Below the pieces are notes generated by a model. The model saw only the letters and a list, made by a program, of their open reading frames with translations. It was not told where the DNA came from and did no database searches. This document shows, piece after piece, positions 3,988-63,329 of a stretch of DNA of 64,000 bases. The stretch lies in assembly GCA_001816655.1 (NCBI GenBank), contig MHCP01000015.1, positions 96,049 through 160,048 of the forward strand. Direction: 5' to 3'. The DNA comes from Candidatus Woykebacteria bacterium RBG_13_40_15 (GTDB lineage: Bacteria; Patescibacteriota; Microgenomatia; Woykebacterales; RBG-16-39-9b). The translations under genes and the position numbers were made by a program. Every line of letters starts with the position of its first letter. The first letter of the stretch is position 1.

Positions 3988-4030
3988 CTCCCAAAAACTT
4001 GAAATTTCTATAAGTCAGATATATAATCGC
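3988..4030 (+). promoter_or_regulatory. Promoter repeat copy A (TTGAAA-17-TATAAT)
   Basis: -35 TTGAAA 3999..4004, 17-nt spacer, -10 TATAAT 4022..4027. First of five copies of CCAAAAACTTGAAATTTCTATAAGTCA...TATAAT. Confidence 0.6.
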
Positions 4031-4128
4031 GAAGATTACATCTAGCCCGTTTCTATGCGGGATTTAATCCCGTCAGTGAATAATGTCGGTACCACTGCAT
4101 TAGTACAGTCCGAAAGGAGAGTCGTCTG

Positions 4129-4539
4129 ATGGCTGACAGGAAAAGATCGACTTCTTGGAGAGCCGATCCAGAGTTCCGGAGAATGGTGGAGGAAAAGAAG
4201 CAAGAGCTGGATTACCTCTTCGGTCTTATCGGTCCGTTCGAGGATTGGGAGGACTGGGATGAGTCTATCCCAGACGAGGACGTGGTCCGCTTAGAGCTGC
4301 ACGTAGGAGACGGCATTGAAAGAGGTCATCTGGAGCTAACCATGGGCGAGCTTCGAAGGGTCAAAGAGCTCGCCGAACTGCTCAAAGTGCTGAAAGAGCA
4401 GAAGATCATGATCGAAGAGCCAGACACGATCGCTAGACTCACCAGCGAGCTAGGATCCGAAAGTGCAAAGAGGGCTCTCGAGGTAGTACTCGGAAGCTTG
4501 ATAATCGAAGGCTGTCCTTGCGACGAACTGTCGGACTAA
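4129..4539 (+). CDS. Hypothetical acidic protein (GC-rich cassette gene 1)
   Basis: 136 aa, GC-rich codon usage unlike the flanks. GGAGAG RBS. No recognisable domain. Ends in CPCDELSD. Confidence 0.5.
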   Translation: MADRKRSTSWRADPEFRRMVEEKKQELDYLFGLIGPFEDWEDWDESIPDEDVVRLELHVGDGIERGHLELTMGELRRVKELAELLKVLKEQKIMIEEPDTIARLTSELGSESAKRALEVVLGSLIIEGCPCDELSD

Positions 4540-5722: not shown

Positions 5723-5842
5723 ATGGAAATAAAGGAAACACAGGCGAAAAGTATTTTAACCCCTTCCAAATTCACAACTGCTTATGCAGGAAAGAGAACA
5801 CTTCAATCTATTGATAAATTAAAGTGTTTCCCAAAAACTTGA
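5723..5842 (+). pseudogene. Diverged duplicate of the 5' end of the radical-SAM SplB-like gene (remnant)
   Basis: Encodes MEIKETQAKSILTPSK..., versus MEIKEIAAKSVLTPSK at 7693. About 80% nt identity over the first ~48 nt, then divergence. The stop falls inside promoter repeat C. Confidence 0.55.
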
Positions 5843-5870
5843 AATTTCTATAAGTCAAAGATATAATTCC
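5829..5870 (+). promoter_or_regulatory. Promoter repeat copy C (TTGAAA-17-TATAAT)
   Basis: -35 at 5839..5844 and -10 at 5862..5867. Near-identical to copies A and E. Confidence 0.6.
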
Positions 5871-9457: not shown

Positions 9458-9465
9458 CTAATTCC

Positions 9466-9502
9466 CCAAAACTTGAAATTTCTATAAGTCATACATTATA
9501 AT
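9466..9502 (+). promoter_or_regulatory. Promoter repeat copy E (TTGAAA-18-TATAAT)
   Basis: -35 at 9473..9478 and -10 at 9497..9502. Its downstream leader shares GAAAGGAGGGATGG with copy D's leader. Confidence 0.6.
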
Positions 9503-12513: not shown

Positions 12514-12589
12514 GGTTTCTCGGGAGGGACTCGAACCCCAACCTAAGTGGCTAACAGCCACTGGCTCTTCCAATTGAGCTACCCGAGAA
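12514..12589 (-). tRNA. tRNA-Asn (anticodon GTT)
   Basis: Minus-strand cloverleaf TCTCGGG-TA-GCTC..GAGC-C-AGTGG-CTGTTAG-CCACT..TTCGAGT..CCCGAGA. The T-stem and acceptor junction is one nt off canonical. Confidence 0.6.
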
Positions 12590-21889: not shown

Positions 21890-21918
21890 TTGAACCCCAG
21901 AGTAATTGAGGGTATAAT
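21890..21918 (+). promoter_or_regulatory. Putative sigma70 promoter of ftsK (TTGAAC-17-TATAAT)
   Basis: -35 at 21890..21895, 17-nt spacer, -10 at 21913..21918. Confidence 0.5.
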
Positions 21919-21927
21919 TACCTCACA

Positions 21928-24024
21928 ATGCCCTATCGTCGAAGAAAGTACTCAACAGGTTTTTCAAAGATCAAGCTAAAGAAAAAGACTTTCCAAGCAC
22001 TGGCGGGATTGGTTTTTATTTTGGCTGCGGGTATTACTTTGCTTTCACTTTTCAGTGTTTCATATCCAGCAGTTCTGCTACACGAACAACTTGTAAAATA
22101 TTTCGGGTTTATTACGCCACTTCTGCCAATTGCCCTAACAGTAGCTGGACTCTTCCTTTTGAAAGTAAAGCTACCAATCACTGGGGCGAACAGTGTGGCT
22201 GGGCTATATCTATTCCTGCTTTCGATCCTTTCGTTGGTGGCCACCTTTTCCCCAGCAAAAGGGGGAGTTGTTGGTCAGTCTATCGCTGATATCTTAAGTC
22301 AAACACTTTCCAAGCCAGGGGCCTTTTTTACCTTTTTTATTTTGATGCTTGTTTCGATTGTGGTCTTTTTCAACACATCTCTCGAGACGCTAATAAACGT
22401 TCTTGGGCTTGCCGGTTCTGCTACCCTTTCTTTTCTTAAAGCCGTATTTGCCGGAAAAGAAGGAGAGGAAGAAGAAAAAGAACCAACATTTACTACGAGA
22501 GGTTTAGATAATCAAGCGAAGGCCGAAAAAGAAGAGGAACTTCCTAGTATGAAAGCTCCGATAACTAATTTGCCTGGAAGCGAAGACGTTTGGGAATACC
22601 CCCCCATTGATTTGTTGACAGATAGTCTTGGTGCGAAAGCAACCCGTGGGGATATAAAACAAAGTGCAGCAATTATTGAGAAAACTTTAGAATCGTTTGG
22701 TATTCAAGCAAAAGTTGTTGAGGTAAATATGGGTCCGGCTGTTACCCAATACGCACTCGAAATTGCACTCGGAACAAAACTAACAAAAATTACCTCTTTA
22801 GCCAATGATATTGCCTTGGCGCTAGCCGCTCCTACGGGGACAGTTCGTATAGAAGCGCCAATTCCTGGAAAATCATTAGTTGGTATAGAAGTACCAAACC
22901 TGACATTAGAAATAGTACCGCTTAAAAACGTCTTAACCTCCGCACAAATGCAAAAAGCGAAATCAAAGGTAGAACTTGCGCTGGGCTTAGATGTTTCTGG
23001 CCAATCAGTGGTTGATGACTTAGCTCGAATGCCTCATATGCTTATAGCAGGTAGTACTGGTTCTGGTAAAAGTGTAGCGATCAATGCCTTTATCGCAACA
23101 ATTTTGTTCCGGGCCTCTCCCAACGAAGTAAAATTTATTTTAGTCGATCCAAAAATAGTCGAGCTTTCAAATTGGACGGGCATTCCCCATCTCCTAACCC
23201 CCGTTATTAATGAGCCGGAAAAGGTACTCTCGGCACTTCGTTGGGCAATTGGGGAAATGGAAAAAAGATACAAATTATTTGCGGAAATAGGGGCACGCAA
23301 CATAAATATGTATAACGAGATGAGCGGCTTCCAAGCCTTGCCCTATATAGTTATTATTATCGACGAGTTGGCAGATATCATGCTGTTTGCTCCAGTCGAG
23401 GTTGAAGATGCTATCACTAGACTTGCCCAAATGTCCCGAGCTGTCGGGATCCATATGATTTTGGCAACACAACGCCCAAGTGTCGATGTTTTGACAGGAT
23501 TGATAAAAGCCAATATTCCCTGCCGGGTTTCATTTAATGTCACAAGTCAGATTGACAGCCGGGTAATTATTGACCAGGTTGGTTCCGAAAAATTACTGGG
23601 AAGGGGAGATATGCTTTATGTTCCGCCAGACGCATCGAAGCCATCAAGAATCCAGGGAGTTTTTGTCTCGGAGCCGGAAATAAACAGGTTGATTGGCTTC
23701 TTAAAGAAATCCGGAATAGAACCTCAATATACCGAAGAGGTAACGACAACCCCGGTTTCAAAATTAGCCGGTAAGAAAGGGACAGAAGATGAACTTTTTG
23801 AAGAAGCGGTAAAAGCTGTTGTTCAATACGACCGTGCAAGCGCGTCATTATTGCAGAGACGTTTACGTATCGGTTACGCAAGGGCAGCAAGGCTTTTAGA
23901 CGAGTTAGAAGGTGCTGGTGTTGTGGGAGTAGCCGATGGTAGTAAGGCGCGAGACGTTTTGGTAAAAGATGCGGAAAGAGTAATAGGTAGCGCGTCCAAG
24001 GAGGGATCTGAAGAAAAAGGCTAA
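21928..24024 (+). CDS. ftsK: DNA translocase FtsK/SpoIIIE
   Basis: N-terminal TM helices. Walker A (GSTGSGKS) and Walker B motifs. C-terminal winged-helix gamma domain. Confidence 0.9.
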   Translation: MPYRRRKYSTGFSKIKLKKKTFQALAGLVFILAAGITLLSLFSVSYPAVLLHEQLVKYFGFITPLLPIALTVAGLFLLKVKLPITGANSVAGLYLFLLSILSLVATFSPAKGGVVGQSIADILSQTLSKPGAFFTFFILMLVSIVVFFNTSLETLINVLGLAGSATLSFLKAVFAGKEGEEEEKEPTFTTRGLDNQAKAEKEEELPSMKAPITNLPGSEDVWEYPPIDLLTDSLGAKATRGDIKQSAAIIEKTLESFGIQAKVVEVNMGPAVTQYALEIALGTKLTKITSLANDIALALAAPTGTVRIEAPIPGKSLVGIEVPNLTLEIVPLKNVLTSAQMQKAKSKVELALGLDVSGQSVVDDLARMPHMLIAGSTGSGKSVAINAFIATILFRASPNEVKFILVDPKIVELSNWTGIPHLLTPVINEPEKVLSALRWAIGEMEKRYKLFAEIGARNINMYNEMSGFQALPYIVIIIDELADIMLFAPVEVEDAITRLAQMSRAVGIHMILATQRPSVDVLTGLIKANIPCRVSFNVTSQIDSRVIIDQVGSEKLLGRGDMLYVPPDASKPSRIQGVFVSEPEINRLIGFLKKSGIEPQYTEEVTTTPVSKLAGKKGTEDELFEEAVKAVVQYDRASASLLQRRLRIGYARAARLLDELEGAGVVGVADGSKARDVLVKDAERVIGSASKEGSEEKG

Positions 24025-39509: not shown

Positions 39510-39923
39510 ATGCCAACAATTAATCAACTTGTTCGAAAAGGCAGAAAAAAAGTAACTACAAAAGTCAAAGCCACTGCTTTGCGTGGTTCTTTTAATTCTC
39601 CGAAAAGAAAATTAGTTCCAACAACTAATCCTCAGAAAAGAGGGGTGGCTATTGCTGTAAAAACAATGACGCCTAAGAAACCAAATTCTGCATTGAGAAA
39701 AATAGCTAGAGTACGTCTTTCTAACCGAAAAGAAATAACTGCTTACATTCCCGGTATTGGCCATAGTTTACAAGAACACTCCATCGTACTGGTGAGAGGT
39801 GGGAGGGTTAAAGATTTACCAGGTGTGAAGTACCATGTTATAAGAGGGCATTACGATACATCTGGGGTGGAGAATCGAAAGCAAGGCCGTAGTTTATACG
39901 GCAGCAAGAAATCTAAAGAGTAA
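39510..39923 (+). CDS. rpsL: 30S ribosomal protein S12
   Basis: [12 protein letters not shown]... with the conserved [10 protein letters not shown] motif. Confidence 0.97.
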
Positions 39924-39925
39924 TT

Positions 39926-39962
39926 ATATCTCGCTAGAAAAACGCGAGATGTAATCTTACGA
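39926..39962. repeat. Hairpin plus AGATGTAATCT palindromic element (copy 1)
   Basis: ATATCTCGC-tagaaaaac-GCGAGAT-GTAATCTTACG, immediately upstream of the rpsG ATG. Confidence 0.5.
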
Positions 39963-39964
39963 TT

Positions 39965-40438
39965 ATGAGAGGTAAAAGAGCTGAAAAAAGAAAACTTGTG
40001 CCGGACCCAGTTTATAATAGCCGTTTAGTTGTAAGGCTTGTAAATCGTATTATGGAACAAGGTAAGAAAAAGGTTGCAGAAGGGGTTGTTTACGATTCGT
40101 TTGAAAAAATAAAGCAGGGGGGAAAAGACCCACTTGAGGTATTTGAAACGGCAGTAAGAAATGTTAGCCCAAAAATGGAAGTAAAATCTCGCCGAATTGG
40201 TGGGGCTTCTTATCAAGTACCGATGGAAGTAAGAGGCGATCGAAAAGAATCATTAGCGCTTCGCTGGATTGTTTCTTTTGCAAAACAGCGGCCTAATTCA
40301 GAATATAAAACAATGATCGATAAATTGGCAGCGGAATTAACTGATGCGGCATCAGGAACAGGTGCGGCAATTAAAAAGAGAGACGACACACATCGTATGG
40401 CTGAGGCGAATAAAGCCTTCTCGCATTTCCGTTGGTAG
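39965..40438 (+). CDS. rpsG: 30S ribosomal protein S7
   Basis: 157 aa with an S7 signature. Ends in [10 protein letters not shown]. Confidence 0.97.
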
Positions 40439-51883: not shown

Positions 51884-52495
51884 ATGGCAGAATATAATAC
51901 TGAAAACGAGTTTGAAGAGAAAATAGTTCAAGTGAATAGGGTTTCGAAAAAAACTGCGGGGGGAAACAAAATTGGATTTTCCGTATTGGTGGTTGTTGGT
52001 GACAGAGACGGGCGTGTAGGGGTCGGTTTAGGCAAGGCACCTGGTGTGCAAGACGCAATTAAAAAAGGAGCTACGTATGCTAAAAAACACCTACTTATTG
52101 TGCCTATGGTAGAGACAACGATTCCCCATGAAGTTTTTATAAAGCGCGGCGCAGCAAAAGTTTTGCTAAAGCCAGCGGCCAAAGGCACTGGGGTAATAGC
52201 TGGTGGGGCTGTTAGAGCTGTGGTTGAAGCCGCTGGAATCAGAGATATTTTGTCAAAAGTTTTAGGGACTTCCAATCAAGCCTCGAACGTCTACGCTACC
52301 TTAGAAGCTCTTAGAGAGTTGAGACCGTTAGCTAGTAAAGAAAAAGTTTTAGGTAAAGAGGATCGTAAAGGCGAAAAAGAGGCCAGTAAATTAATGGAAA
52401 AAGACAGGCAGAGTGTGAATAAATCCCAAAAAAATAAAACCAAACCAAAAAACCAGCCAAAGACCAAGAAGGAAAGCAAAAATGGACCTAAATAA
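51884..52495 (+). CDS. rpsE: 30S ribosomal protein S5 (with K-rich C-terminal extension)
   Basis: S5 dsRBD and C-terminal domain, followed directly by rplO with no rpmD (L30) in between. Confidence 0.95.
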   Translation: MAEYNTENEFEEKIVQVNRVSKKTAGGNKIGFSVLVVVGDRDGRVGVGLGKAPGVQDAIKKGATYAKKHLLIVPMVETTIPHEVFIKRGAAKVLLKPAAKGTGVIAGGAVRAVVEAAGIRDILSKVLGTSNQASNVYATLEALRELRPLASKEKVLGKEDRKGEKEASKLMEKDRQSVNKSQKNKTKPKNQPKTKKESKNGPK

Positions 52496-52919
52496 ACTGC
52501 CAAAAATCAAACAGAGAGCAAAAAAAAGACTCGGTAGAGGTGAATCTTCTGGAAAAGGCAAAACCAGTGGTCGTGGAGCAAAAGGGCAGAAAAAACGGGA
52601 GAATGTAAAAGTAGGTTTTGAGGGAGGCCAGCTGCCCCTACAAAAAAGACTCCCGCAAAAAAGAGGCGTAGGTAATAGAATAAAATTTCCAGTAATTGCG
52701 ATTACTACAGCACAATTGAATAAACTGTTAGCAAAATCTATTGTGGACGAAAAAACCTTGAGGAAAGAAGGCCTCATTCCAAAAAGCCGTCGGAAAATAA
52801 AAATTATTGCAGGAGGTAAATTAGAAAAAGTCTTGAAGGTTACACTACCAACGACCAAATCAGCCAAAAATATTATTGAAAAGGCTGGAGGCACAACTAC
52901 TTATGAGAGTTCTGATTAA
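52482..52919 (+). CDS. rplO: 50S ribosomal protein L15
   Basis: 145 aa with a GRG-rich N-terminus. Confidence 0.93.
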   Translation: MDLNKLPKIKQRAKKRLGRGESSGKGKTSGRGAKGQKKRENVKVGFEGGQLPLQKRLPQKRGVGNRIKFPVIAITTAQLNKLLAKSIVDEKTLRKEGLIPKSRRKIKIIAGGKLEKVLKVTLPTTKSAKNIIEKAGGTTTYESSD

Positions 52920-56657: not shown

Positions 56658-57284
56658 ATGGCTAGGTATTTAGGACCAAAATTTAGGTTAGATAGGCGAG
56701 AAGGAACGAACCTTTTTCTAAAGGGAAAGAGGAGCACTTCTCCAAAGCATCCAATTGAAAAAAAAGGCGCAGTACCTCCTGGTCAACACGGGACATCTAA
56801 GTTAAGAAGAAAAGTTTCAGATTTTGGGCTGCAACTTCGGGAAAAACAAAAAGTTAAAAGGATATATGGATTACTTGAGCGCCAGTTTAAACGTTGTTTT
56901 ACCGAAGCATCGAAAGAGGTTGGCAATACTGGAGAGGCACTTTTTAGGTTGCTAGAAACAAGGCTTGATAATGTAGTATACAGACTCGCGTTTGCCCCCT
57001 CTAGGGCAGCGGCTCGTCAGCTTGTTACCCATGGTCATGTGTTAGTAAACGGTAAGAAAACTAGTATACCATCTTACAATTTGAAAGTTGGGGATGTAAT
57101 TGCCCTTTCGGAGAAAGGGCAAGGATTGCCAGGTACGAAAGAAAGCCTGGAACTTAGAGGCGACCAGCTCCCATCTTGGTTGAGTAGGCAGGCTTTAGTT
57201 GGTAAGATTAAGTCCATACCAAGCAGCGAAGATTTAGATACAACTATCGATAAACAGCTAATTATTGAATGGTACTCTCGTTAA
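56658..57284 (+). CDS. rpsD: 30S ribosomal protein S4
   Basis: 208 aa (MARYLGPK). Confidence 0.95.
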   Translation: MARYLGPKFRLDRREGTNLFLKGKRSTSPKHPIEKKGAVPPGQHGTSKLRRKVSDFGLQLREKQKVKRIYGLLERQFKRCFTEASKEVGNTGEALFRLLETRLDNVVYRLAFAPSRAAARQLVTHGHVLVNGKKTSIPSYNLKVGDVIALSEKGQGLPGTKESLELRGDQLPSWLSRQALVGKIKSIPSSEDLDTTIDKQLIIEWYSR

Positions 57285-57290
57285 AGTTAT

Positions 57291-57325
57291 ATCTCGCTAA
57301 GAGATATATACGCGAGATTTAATCT
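57291..57325. repeat. Hairpin plus AGATTTAATCT palindromic element (copy 2)
   Basis: ATCTCGC-(14-nt loop)-GCGAGAT-TTAATCTTGCG, between rpsD and rpoA. Confidence 0.5.
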
Positions 57326-57367
57326 TGCGTAGGAGTGTTGCGACGCAGAAAGCTTTAGCTTTCTCTT

Positions 57368-57408
57368 ATATCTTGCAGAGAAACAAGCGCAAGATGTAAT
57401 CTTGTGAT
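57368..57408. repeat. Hairpin plus AGATGTAATCT palindromic element (copy 3)
   Basis: ATATCTTGC-(12-nt loop)-GCAAGAT-GTAATCTTGTGATTAT, about 25 nt before the rpoA ATG. Confidence 0.5.
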
Positions 57409-57433
57409 TATTAAAAACTTTTAAGGAGGTTTT

Positions 57434-60896: not shown

Positions 60897-60932
60897 ATTC
60901 TCGACAAATAATTTTGGTAGTATAATCTAAGT

Positions 60933-61340
60933 ATGTATATCGCATATGCTATTCTTGCTGCTTTTACAGCTGGTTTGGTCGCAATATTTGGAAAAATTGG
61001 TCTTGAAAAAGTTGACACCACTTTGGCCACAACCATCCGCGCAATAATAATGGCCGCTATTTTGCTTCTGACAAGTCTCGCACTCCGAAAGTGGAATCTC
61101 TCGCAAATAGATAGTAGAGCATTCCTTTACATTTTTCTGGCCGGTCTTGCTGGAGCAGTCTCTTGGCTCTTCTACTTTTTGGCTTTGAAAAGCGGCCCAG
61201 CTACAGCGGTTGCTGCACTTGATCGATTGAGTGTTGTTTTTGTGCTTGTTTTGGCGGCTATATTTTTGAATGAAAGTCTGACAGTTAAAACTGTAATTGG
61301 TGGGGTCTTAGTAGTAGTAGGCGCACTTCTTTTTATCTAA
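60933..61340 (+). CDS. EamA-domain (DMT superfamily) small membrane protein
   Basis: 135 aa with four TM helices in a single EamA repeat. Confidence 0.6.
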   Translation: MYIAYAILAAFTAGLVAIFGKIGLEKVDTTLATTIRAIIMAAILLLTSLALRKWNLSQIDSRAFLYIFLAGLAGAVSWLFYFLALKSGPATAVAALDRLSVVFVLVLAAIFLNESLTVKTVIGGVLVVVGALLFI

Positions 61341-61942: not shown

Positions 61943-62087
61943 AGAAAAATTATTCTAACACATTTTTCAAAATCAGAACAATCGTAAGGTTACCTGTCCG
62001 TCGGCAGGCGGACATCTCGCCACCCCTTCTATGGTGAGATATAGTCCGCTTTGCGTACTGTTTCTCTAGGGATATATAATTAGTTTA

Positions 62088-63329
62088 ATGAGTGAGACTT
62101 CTGAAATTCCCCAAAGCCCGCCCGAAGGTGGAATAGCTACAGAAAAACCTGTTCCTACAGCCGCAGAACAGAAAAAGCAAGAACCAGAAGAAAAAGACCC
62201 ATTTAAATTGGAAATAGAGGGAGCTGGGGATGAGATTCGCGAGTTACTGAAAAGAGAAAACTTTATAGCACATGATAATGACGATTTAATTAGACAACTA
62301 GAAGACCCAAATCGTCGGTTTGCAACCTTAGTTGGGTTTAGGAGAGAAGAAGGAAGAGAGCTTCCGGTTAAAAGATTTTTCAAAGGCCCCCTGCCGCAAC
62401 AAGATCCAGAAAGAGACGAAAAAACAAGGCTTGCTTTCCAACGCCAAACCCTCGCACATTATTATTTGGATATGCATACAGAAGTCCCGCTTGCAGAAAT
62501 ATTTGAATTTAACGCCGATCCTTCAAAGGGACCGATGTATGCTGTTATGGCGACTTACGAGGAAGGATCTGGTATTGGGTTTTTAAGAGGTTACGAGGAC
62601 ATTGGTAAGCTAACACCAAAGCACGCTAGACTTGCAGTCCGGGCAATAAGAGGTTTAGCCCATCAAGAAAATGGAATTACGCCTGAGTTAGCAGAGGTTT
62701 TAGATAAAAGACCCGCCTACCAAGACTTCGAAGGTTTTGAAGGAAATATGACTGCTATTTTGGATAAGCCGGTAATTGGAGCAGGCAAGCCTCACTCCGA
62801 GGATAAAAGACCTTTGCATAAGATTTTGGAAGAAAGAACTAGAATAGGCGGTTTTAGGGAAAAGGCTTTAAGTCTGGTCGCCTGCTTGAAAACAACTATT
62901 GAAGAAGGACAAAAAGGTATTCATTTGGTTCACGGTGATTTGGCACCAAACAATCTTTTTCTTGGAGACGGAATAAAGGCCGAAGAACTAATGTTCTTAG
63001 ATTTCGAGTGGGCGGGTATAAGTGGTAATCAAATACTTGCCGAGGCTTATGATTTTGGAAATTTGCGGGCACGGTCATGGACAAACGAAGAATTTAGAGA
63101 TTCTTTGGATAAAGAAATGATTGAAAGTTACGCGTCAGAAGGCCGTGAAGATATTGGTAGGGCAATTGTTACCCTTGGAATTTTAAGATCGCATATGAAT
63201 CTCGCTGGTTTTTTTGAAAATTACCCACCCGAAAAATCTGAACAACAAATACAAATTGAACGTCGCGAAGCAACAGAAAAAGATATTGCTAAAGCATGGG
63301 AAGTTTTAGGACTTAATCCTAAAGCTTAA
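62088..63329 (+). CDS. Hypothetical protein with kinase-like (APH/choline-kinase family) catalytic motif
   Basis: 413 aa. HLVHGDLAPNNLFL resembles the HGDxxxxN catalytic loop of phosphotransferase-family kinases. The N-terminus is low-complexity. Confidence 0.55.
   Translation: MSETSEIPQSPPEGGIATEKPVPTAAEQKKQEPEEKDPFKLEIEGAGDEIRELLKRENFIAHDNDDLIRQLEDPNRRFATLVGFRREEGRELPVKRFFKGPLPQQDPERDEKTRLAFQRQTLAHYYLDMHTEVPLAEIFEFNADPSKGPMYAVMATYEEGSGIGFLRGYEDIGKLTPKHARLAVRAIRGLAHQENGITPELAEVLDKRPAYQDFEGFEGNMTAILDKPVIGAGKPHSEDKRPLHKILEERTRIGGFREKALSLVACLKTTIEEGQKGIHLVHGDLAPNNLFLGDGIKAEELMFLDFEWAGISGNQILAEAYDFGNLRARSWTNEEFRDSLDKEMIESYASEGREDIGRAIVTLGILRSHMNLAGFFENYPPEKSEQQIQIERREATEKDIAKAWEVLGLNPKA

Follow-up and report, generated by a model that had tools for sequence, protein, structure and literature searches.

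Our analysis of a 64,000-nucleotide stretch of the Candidatus Woykebacteria bacterium RBG_13_40_15 genome (here referred to as the window) revealed a set of short hairpin-forming sequences that most probably represent a family of very small, nonautonomous mobile DNA elements occurring in Candidatus Woykebacteria and in related Microgenomates. The S7 and RpoA proteins encoded in the window show 100% identity to those of this bacterium. On the target strand, an occupied site reads (T)ATAAT, followed by CGCAAG-ATTACATCTCGC-loop-GCGAGATATAAT and then by the flank. The unit lies immediately 3′ of ATAAT, in most cases within a perfect TATAAT, and its own last bases are (A/G/T)TAAT, so that the site looks like a duplicated −10 box. 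The insertion leaves the −35/−10 pair intact and sets a second TATAAT beside the original start region. The original prediction had described three near-identical hairpin elements, together with related motifs at an island promoter, as a regulatory or processing element placed at internal entry points of the ribosomal superoperon, with the binding site of a dimeric regulator, an RNase processing signal, and a mini-repeat as candidate identities.

The three ribosomal elements were indeed present where they had been placed, in the rpsL-rpsG and rpsD-rpoA spacers. The pattern ATCTYGC-N3-20-GCRAGAT matched the window three times (39928-39950, 57291-57318, and 57370-57395) versus 0.01 matches expected by shuffling, and the 18-mer GCRAGATKTAATCTTRYG had three exact occurrences. 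The bare 11-mer AGATNTAATCT with at most one mismatch was found 8 times versus 6.4 times expected in the window, which is not above chance; significance resides in the longer unit, not in the bare 11-mer. Based on Pfam labels from syntenic loci, the gene order around the two sites (slashes) is rpoB-rpoC-x-rpsL/rpsG-fusA-tuf-S10...spc...rpsM-rpsK-rpsD/rpoA-rplQ. As listed in Table 1, copy A fills the 41-nt rpsL-rpsG spacer wholly, and most of the 149-nt rpsD-rpoA spacer is taken up by copies B and C, which a 36-nt linker separates. The RNA fold of copy A has an energy of −15.9 kcal/mol (z = −3.9), and its inferred target, ATTATG on the plus strand and CATAAT on the minus strand, includes the rpsG start codon (39965-39967). 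Copy B is without the terminal ATTATA and is joined to the linker module, while copy C lies 5′ of the target ATTAT (57407-57411), 22 nt before the rpoA Shine-Dalgarno sequence and start codon (57434). Elsewhere in the window (51884-52919), the S5 and L15 open reading frames (ORFs) overlap, leaving no room for rpmD (L30) between them.

Table 1. Positions of the hairpin elements and associated features in the window
Feature	Positions	Strand	Description and evidence
Island promoter copy A	3999..4027	+	TTGAAA (3999-4004), 17-nt spacer, TATAAT (4022-4027)
Copy D	4028..4068	-	Diverged 41-nt insert; plus strand reads CGCGAAGATTACATCTAGCCCGTTTCTATGCGGGATTTAAT; alignment, nhmmer, covariance model
rpsL stop codon	39921-39923		TAA
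Copy A	39923..39961	+	39-nt insert between rpsL stop codon and rpsG start; ATTATATCTCGC-TAGAAAAAC-GCGAGATGTAAT-CTTACG; "forward" orientation (the TATAAT-bearing strand is the minus strand); 60.2 bits (covariance model)
Inferred target of copy A	39962..39967	-	Comparison of filled and empty sites, and sequence
Copy B	57286..57329	+	Directly after rpsD stop codon (57282-57284); GTTATATCTCGC-loop-GCGAGATTTAAT-CTTGCG; forward orientation; 46.3 bits (covariance model)
Linker module	57330..57365	+	TAGGAGTGTTGCGACGCAGAAAGCTTTAGCTTTCTC; own small hairpin AGAAAGC/GCTTTCT
Copy C	57366..57406	+	TTATATCTTGC-AGAGAAACAAGC-GCAAGATGTAAT-CTTGTG; forward orientation; 64.7 bits (covariance model)

The motifs reported from the island, AGATTACATCT at 4033-4043 and GGGATTTAATCCC at 4059-4071, were confirmed as well. 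They constitute both ends of one diverged but complete fourth copy on the minus strand (4022-4068), which was recognized in an alignment with the reverse complement of positions 4010-4070. This copy D was supported by nhmmer (E value of 8.6 × 10−4) and by the covariance model (46.8 bits; E value of 3.4 × 10−7), and a covariance-model scan of the window found no full copies beyond A to D. Copy D has the "reverse" orientation that is common in the family and is co-directional with the downstream gene (4129-4539); the TATAAT at 4022-4027 of island promoter copy A is its target, after which it is inserted. The proposed link with the island promoter is real, but not for the reason originally given: the element inserts directly behind TATAAT −10 boxes. 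The segment 62030-62087, which precedes the gene at position 62088, reads GGTGAGATATAGT-CCGCTTTGCGTA-CTGTTTCTCTAGGGATATATAAT, followed by 7 nt and ATG; it resembles one or two copies of the element that have decayed and have the orientation common in the family, and it was not detected by nhmmer or the covariance model.

The promoter that precedes copy D is one of three copies of an approximately 40-nt sequence (TTCCCAAAAACTTGAAATTTCTATAAGTCA...TATAAT) located at 3988-4027, 5828-5867, and 9462-9502. The island itself is a GC-richer stretch at about 4 to 12.5 kb of the window (45 to 53% GC versus ~39% elsewhere) that ends adjoining a tRNA-Asn gene (12514-12589, minus strand). Its ORFs include a PIN toxin and SDR, MaoC, radical SAM, and DnaJ proteins, and no integrase or transposase was found among them.

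Comparison of filled and empty sites defined the inserted unit. In the loci L125 to L127, whose S7 protein is 90% identical to that of the window, the rpsL-rpsG spacer comprises 2 nt (TAA-TC-ATG) and represents an empty site: it reads ...AAAGAATAATCATGAGAGG, while the window reads ...AAAGAGTA, the insert ATTATATCTCGCTAGAAAAACGCGAGATGTAATCTTACG, and then ATTATGAGAGG. Upstream of fusA, both L127 and the window are empty, with CTGATATAAT running directly into TTAAGTTCAG (also written as GATATAAT followed by TTAAG); at the same place, L125 and L126, which have the same S7 protein as L127 and are 88 to 95% identical to it in DNA sequence, carry exactly 44 extra bases, CGCAAGATTGATATCTCGCGATTGTTTCTCTGGCGAGATATAAT, after TATAAT. 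The third orthologous site, rpsD-rpoA, harbors no copy in L130 to L133 (RpoA 87 to 88% identical; GTTAATATTATTAAAC..AAGGAGG), one copy in L134 to L137, and two copies plus the linker in the window. The single copy of L134 to L137 lies 5′ of ATTATTAAA, exactly at the place of window copy C, and copy B is missing from L128, L129, and L130 to L133. Finally, the paralogous island promoters provide a fourth comparison, as the TATAAT of the copies at 5828 and 9462 runs straight into TCCACCA with no insert and that of island promoter copy A is filled by 41 nt. The rule on the target strand, ...(N)ATAAT, then the insert ending in (A/G/T)TAAT, then the flank, was identical in 4 of 4 comparisons, this being a set of only four, with relatives represented by metagenome assemblies. 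At the level of sequence, these comparisons show the ribosomal copies A to C to be derived, lineage-specific insertions.

This result bears directly on the idea that the element constitutes a conserved cis-regulatory RNA or operator of ribosomal-protein operons, acting in S7 or S4 autoregulation, RNase processing, or binding of a dimeric repressor. Escherichia coli possesses translational operators for S7 in the str operon (rpsL-rpsG) and for S4 in the alpha operon, and the window copies resemble them in occupying the same two intergenic regions and in forming a stable hairpin together with an alternative one. Unlike such operators, however, the element is not kept even where S7 is 90% identical, and it also fronts unrelated genes. 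The closest relatives lack it at rpsL-rpsG and carry none or one copy at rpsD-rpoA, and the spacers of the more distant Woykebacteria L128 and L129 are unrelated in sequence at both places, so that a role at internal entry points of the superoperon is not supported; conservation at these positions is absent from L125 to L127, L128, L129, and L130 to L133. Moreover, the element precedes many nonribosomal genes, mostly in the opposite orientation, and a search against Rfam 15 yielded no family match to it even at an E value of ≤1. The cis-regulatory reading is largely refuted by the empty sites, and we consider it highly improbable. An RNA-processing role is possible, and no observation requires it.

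The host sequence at the left junction corroborated the target rule. The hexamer at 31 independent, nontandem left junctions was TATAAT in 25, and the others were AATAAT (twice), CATAAT, TGTAAT, TCTAAT, TATACT, and TATAAC. Those non-TATAAT hexamers that lie in ribosomal operons (window copies A and C and L134) are antisense-strand sites; in the window, the target CATAAT overlaps the start codon of rpsG, and the target AATAAT precedes the Shine-Dalgarno sequence of rpoA. The left hexamer and the right end differ in several copies (AATAAT and GTAAT in L134, TATAAT and TTAAT in copy D, TGTAAT and ATAAT in L014), and hence there is no 5- to 6-bp target duplication; a 4-bp TAAT duplication is possible and would look the same as an element whose right end simply terminates in TAAT and which duplicates nothing.

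Next to an occupied TATAAT, a TTG 16 to 18 nt upstream was present in 13 of 25 cases, compared with 24 of 105 unoccupied intergenic and 15 of 190 unoccupied coding TATAAT sequences; this is an enrichment at real sigma-70-type promoters, and the element thus sits preferentially on genuine −10 boxes. The occupied promoters include a perfect TTGACA-N17-TATAAT before rpsL in Woykebacteria GWB1_45_5 (L128 and L017) and TTGAAA-N17-TATAAT at copy D. This excess could reflect selection for function instead of targeting. Several features of the family follow from the target rule. With TATAAT being the −10 hexamer itself, most survivors lie at the −10 boxes of promoters; since TATAAT is not palindromic, the rule alone explains the orientation bias; and as each element ends in a new TATAAT target, tandem copies are a natural result.

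To place the window copies within a family, an exact-pattern scan covered 185,579 GTDB representative genomes and returned 42 loci, with about 10 chance matches expected over the whole collection by our own estimate. Sixteen matches lie on 12 contigs of Woykebacteria GWB1_45_5, and further clusters were found in SMAG_U2959 (six), C24_maxbin.080 (three), and Woykebacteria LejiaB_43_27 (two). Single variants came from two Curtissbacteria, one Daviesbacteria, and one contig labelled Gammaproteobacteria, and the matches from unrelated phyla were single and mostly within coding sequence. The 49-nt consensus is ATTATATCTCGCTAGAGAAACAAGCGCGAGATGTAATCTTGCGATTATA, its reverse complement being TATAAT-CGCAAGATTACATCTCGCGCTTGTTTCTCTAGCGAGA-TATAAT; about 43 nt of it are inserted, and the flanking repeat brings it to 49 nt. 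Eight copies are identical to each other, and most others have one to three differences. Across at least four species-level genomes, the canonical copies hardly differ from each other, which is unlike decaying junk. Either the spread was recent or the sequence is under selection, and the latter could mean a host function. The pattern was not found in a scan of viral contigs, and a metagenome scan with the S7 protein yielded only relatives of ≤62% identity from unrelated organisms, none of them with the element. Searching with the L16 protein of the window returned two short contigs and nothing more.

According to simple ORF calls, the copies in other genomes lie overwhelmingly between genes, and at approximately 20 of 24 sites between co-directional genes the TATAAT-bearing strand is the coding strand. 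Window copy D shares this majority orientation, and copies A to C have the opposite one. The genes downstream are unrelated to each other and comprise those of an ABC ATPase, MurG, RecR, trigger factor, MurD, GlyRS, a release factor, FtsW, and L25, as well as rpsL and a tRNA gene; several more were recognized by eye, which we take to be FtsH, S1, ValRS, and rpmH. The mini-repeat alternative of the original prediction is borne out by this dispersed and overwhelmingly intergenic distribution, a pattern at odds with a motif of chance frequency lacking intergenic bias.

Direct tandems that overlap by a shared TATAAT are common (L006, L018, L032, L035, and L036). In composites, the element is joined either to a unit with a short loop or to the TAGGAG...GCTTTCT module, which in the window stands between copies B and C. 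This second repeated module, TAGGAG-N5-GCGACGCAGAAAGC-N4-GCTTTCT, occurs at window positions 57330-57365 and in L038, L040, L007, L125/L127 (upstream of rpsL), and L129. It is always fused to the ...ATCT(C/T)GCG of the hairpin element, usually within the loop, as in the long composite elements of other genomes, and relative to the element it is oriented differently in the window than elsewhere.

Some of the records that carry the element deserve comment. The record named "Candidatus Nanoarchaeia archaeon SMAG_U2959" (DASVHF01; L001, L007, L018, L026, L029, and L129) contains a bacterial S10-spc-alpha operon, and its S7 and RpoA are each 76% identical to those of the window; it looks like a mislabelled Woykebacteria-like bacterium of the Candidate Phyla Radiation (CPR). 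The "Gammaproteobacteria" contig L033 carries a variant of the element identical to that of the Curtissbacteria contig L037. In L016 (6500-6582, minus strand), a sequence resembling the 5′ half of a tRNA (GCGCTTGTAGCTCAATCGGATAGC...) starts 8 nt after the TATAAT end of the element, and Rfam places a complete tRNA approximately 140 nt beyond it; the half may represent a partial tRNA duplication at the insertion site.

The hairpin proposed originally does exist, but its extent had been given as too short: (A)TTATATCTYGC pairs with GCRAGATKTAAT over 12 bp, and the full stem is formed by the arms ATTATATCTYGC and GCRAGATKTAAT. Similarly, the AGATnTAATCT sequence described as a palindrome is present, but it is mostly the 3′ arm of this longer stem together with the tip of an alternative hairpin, CGCRAGAT-NTA-ATCTTRYG (CGCGAGAT-GTA-ATCTTGCG), which shares the middle arm GCRAGAT with the main stem. 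In an alignment of 25 distinct copies, the 12-bp stem was paired in 96.3% of cells, compared with 22 to 52% when the partner columns were slid. The outer eight pairs are conserved in sequence, and the inner four are variable, three of the four with compensatory double changes (TCTCGC/GCGAGA, TCTTGC/GCAAGA, TCCTGC/GCAGGA, and TCGCG/CGCGA). The alternative hairpin was 92.5% paired across the copies, with covariation weaker than in the main stem. Compensatory change in both arms favors a folded nucleic acid over a pair of protein half-sites; together with the functionally unrelated downstream genes, it makes the predicted binding site of a dimeric regulator, and with it a sequence-specific dimer site in ribosomal operons, unlikely.

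G-U pairs are confined to the "forward" strand of the element, and yet the folding energies of the two strands are close (RNA, −13.7 versus −12.1 kcal/mol; DNA, −8.5 versus −7.9 kcal/mol). Both strands thus fold about equally well, and either may be the one that matters, as DNA or as RNA. Inspection of the sequence revealed no terminal inverted repeats, whichever way the unit was rotated; CGCAAG... at one end and ...ATATAAT at the other are not inverted copies of each other. In place of an independent hairpin at each end, the unit has one main hairpin and an overlapping second one sharing an arm. On the 5′ side of the inner stem, ATTA is complementary to the TAAT at the right end, and this pairing constitutes the outer stem, which is 97.5% paired.

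Two hairpins that share the middle arm GCRAGAT and are paired in 96% and 92.5% of cases across copies could in principle form a transcriptional switch, and the element might then be an intrinsic terminator or attenuator with mutually exclusive structures. We find this reading scarcely credible, as a U-tract follows neither hairpin in either orientation and the element lies between promoter and start codon, not behind genes; in addition, the insertion is polymorphic among relatives, and copies occur in both orientations relative to transcription. CRISPR and TIGR arrays were ruled out, the copies being dispersed singletons or direct tandems without spacers, and an integron attC or dif-like site was dropped, as matching core motifs are absent.

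The consequences for the host genes seem to depend on the site. The rpsG gene has no Shine-Dalgarno sequence (window, 39965; L125, 4799-4802), and the distance from the rpsL stop codon to the rpsG start codon is 41 nt in the window versus 2 nt in the closest relatives, whose gap implies translational coupling. On the operon mRNA, the hairpin of copy A would keep the stop codon of rpsL near the start codon of rpsG, with both at the foot of the stem; such modelled folding may explain why an insertion between formerly coupled genes is tolerated. Copy C leaves the rpoA Shine-Dalgarno sequence untouched, and we infer that the ribosomal-operon copies are largely passive, though the backward-facing TATAAT ends of copies A to C could start antisense transcripts. 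Copy D is located between the −10 box of the island promoter and the gene and therefore should be transcribed as a 5′ hairpin.

This raises the question of whether the element, being mobile, has also been domesticated as a portable promoter or leader cassette that is kept because it boosts or tunes expression. In one version, the end TATAAT would serve as the −10 box of leaderless or near-leaderless mRNAs; in the other, the hairpin would act as a 5′-terminal stabilizer on transcripts from the upstream −35/TATAAT. Consistent with the former, start codons lie 6 to 14 nt past the second TATAAT without a Shine-Dalgarno sequence in L001, L002, L011, L014, L030, L031, L036, and L041, and the tRNA gene of L010 begins 14 nt past it. 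Consistent with the latter, the 5′ end of a transcript starting approximately 7 nt past the first TATAAT would all but coincide with the hairpin foot. The near-identity of the sequence across species, the enrichment at real promoters, and the element-free TATAAT-N7-9-ATG arrangements that are common in the window (21928, 60933, and 62088) would also fit a cassette. However, the empty sites indicate that the preexisting promoter already explains the short distance to the start codon, and the same element-free cases show this spacing to be the original promoter geometry. Furthermore, the canonical element has no −35-like hexamer 16 to 18 nt before its own TATAAT, and the three ribosomal copies of the window point the wrong way for such a function. 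An internal −35 for the second TATAAT was rejected specifically, since the canonical copies have TCGCGC at 17 nt and only the T-type variant has TTGCTC at 16 nt. On balance, a cassette with a host function seems rather unlikely.

Apart from the element, many genes start 6 to 11 nt after a TATAAT without a Shine-Dalgarno sequence in the window (21900-21930, 60905-60935, and 62065-62090), and the same near-leaderless spacing was observed in L001, L002, L011, L030, L036, and L041. This suggests that leaderless or near-leaderless mRNAs may be common in Woykebacteria.

As to how the element could move, we propose as the likeliest mechanism a single-strand "peel-and-paste" transposition by an HUH/Y1 enzyme, by analogy with IS200/IS605 and REP/RAYT systems, although we hold it to be less probable than not. 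The hairpin would be the recognition structure of the enzyme, and the ATTA 5′ of its foot would act as a guide pairing with the TAAT cleavage sites. Members of the IS200/IS605 family insert 3′ of a short target of fixed sequence, cause no true duplication, and have a right end terminating in a similar short sequence; they are also without terminal inverted repeats, form hairpin ends, insert in a strict orientation, and carry a guide tetranucleotide by the hairpin foot (PMC6006769). All four of our comparisons showed insertion 3′ of a conserved 4- to 5-nt target without duplication, as in this family, with a 4-bp TAAT duplication being possible. Like IS608, ISDra2, and the miniature derivatives known as PATEs, the element inserts 3′ of a fixed target, has a TAAT-ending right end, is devoid of terminal inverted repeats, keeps a strict target-strand orientation, forms a covarying hairpin, and has by the hairpin foot an ATTA that is complementary to TAAT and might serve as such a guide. 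Unlike them, it is only 43 nt long, has one main and one overlapping hairpin instead of separate left and right ends, and targets the −10 consensus of promoters. A candidate transposase did not emerge: tblastn with three Y1 and RAYT queries against 567 kb of loci, which is a weak test, gave nothing better than an E value of 1.7, and the same search found no RAYT gene flanked by REPs in the 8- to 20-kb pieces around the matches; among the island ORFs, only the domains listed above were found.

The element also resembles the REP, REPIN, and BIME sequences that are associated with RAYT (TnpA-REP) in Proteobacteria, in that it is a short (20 to 45 nt) imperfect palindrome with many extragenic copies, forms tandem or mosaic clusters with linker motifs as BIMEs do, is without terminal inverted repeats, and shows compensatory stem changes and a short conserved sequence 5′ of the hairpin foot. 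In contrast to REPs, its consensus has no GTAG or CGTC tag next to the stem, it lies at −10 boxes 5′ of genes and not at their 3′ ends, it has a precise insertion point after (T)ATAAT, and its host is a CPR lineage. With the Correia elements (CREE/NEMIS) of Neisseria it shares a small size, dispersal, A/T-rich intergenic targets, −10-like sequences, and a cotranscribed hairpin. Correia elements measure 100 to 155 bp, are bounded by terminal inverted repeats of 26 bp, duplicate TA, and form a hairpin that is an RNase III substrate; the present element has none of these features. More generally, the terminal inverted repeats and fixed-length duplication of classical miniature inverted-repeat elements, whether Correia-like or IS630/Tc1 derived, were not found.

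The nearest concept is that of putative mobile promoters, near-identical promoter-proximal sequences located before nonhomologous genes within and between genomes (Matus-Garcia et al. 2012, PMC3488235; PMC3575422). The element differs from these in that it starts after the −10 box and brings no −35, and in that both its limits and its target rule can be fixed with single-nucleotide precision. A search of the literature on repeats in CPR bacteria, on TATAAT-targeting miniature elements, and on REP/RAYT in Patescibacteria found nothing comparable. Miniature hairpin mobile elements are known as a kind, and the apparent homing to −10 boxes is what sets the present one apart.

Combining these lines of thought, the element could be the relic of a promoter-homing single-strand transposon whose enzyme reads the single-stranded nontemplate TATAAT and which has been co-opted as a portable expression module. 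Single-stranded TATAAT would be met either where RNA polymerase has formed an open complex or where the lagging-strand template is exposed, and each jump would rebuild the −10 box and give the mRNA a 5′ hairpin, a property that hosts with many leaderless genes would have co-opted. We regard this combined scenario as improbable; if true, mobile DNA would gain a novel targeting logic, and the CPR its first described system of dispersed repeats.

Our results correct a tempting annotation, in that comparisons of CPR ribosomal-protein operons should treat these hairpins as insertions. They define a mobile unit of 43 nt to the nucleotide, with a clear target rule, insertion after TATAAT. The occupied promoters, which apparently stay usable, amount to a natural experiment on the tolerance of extra sequence between a −10 box and a leaderless start codon, and the presence or absence of the element between near-identical strains offers a strain marker for Woykebacteria. 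Finally, the element may drive the evolution of promoters in very small genomes.
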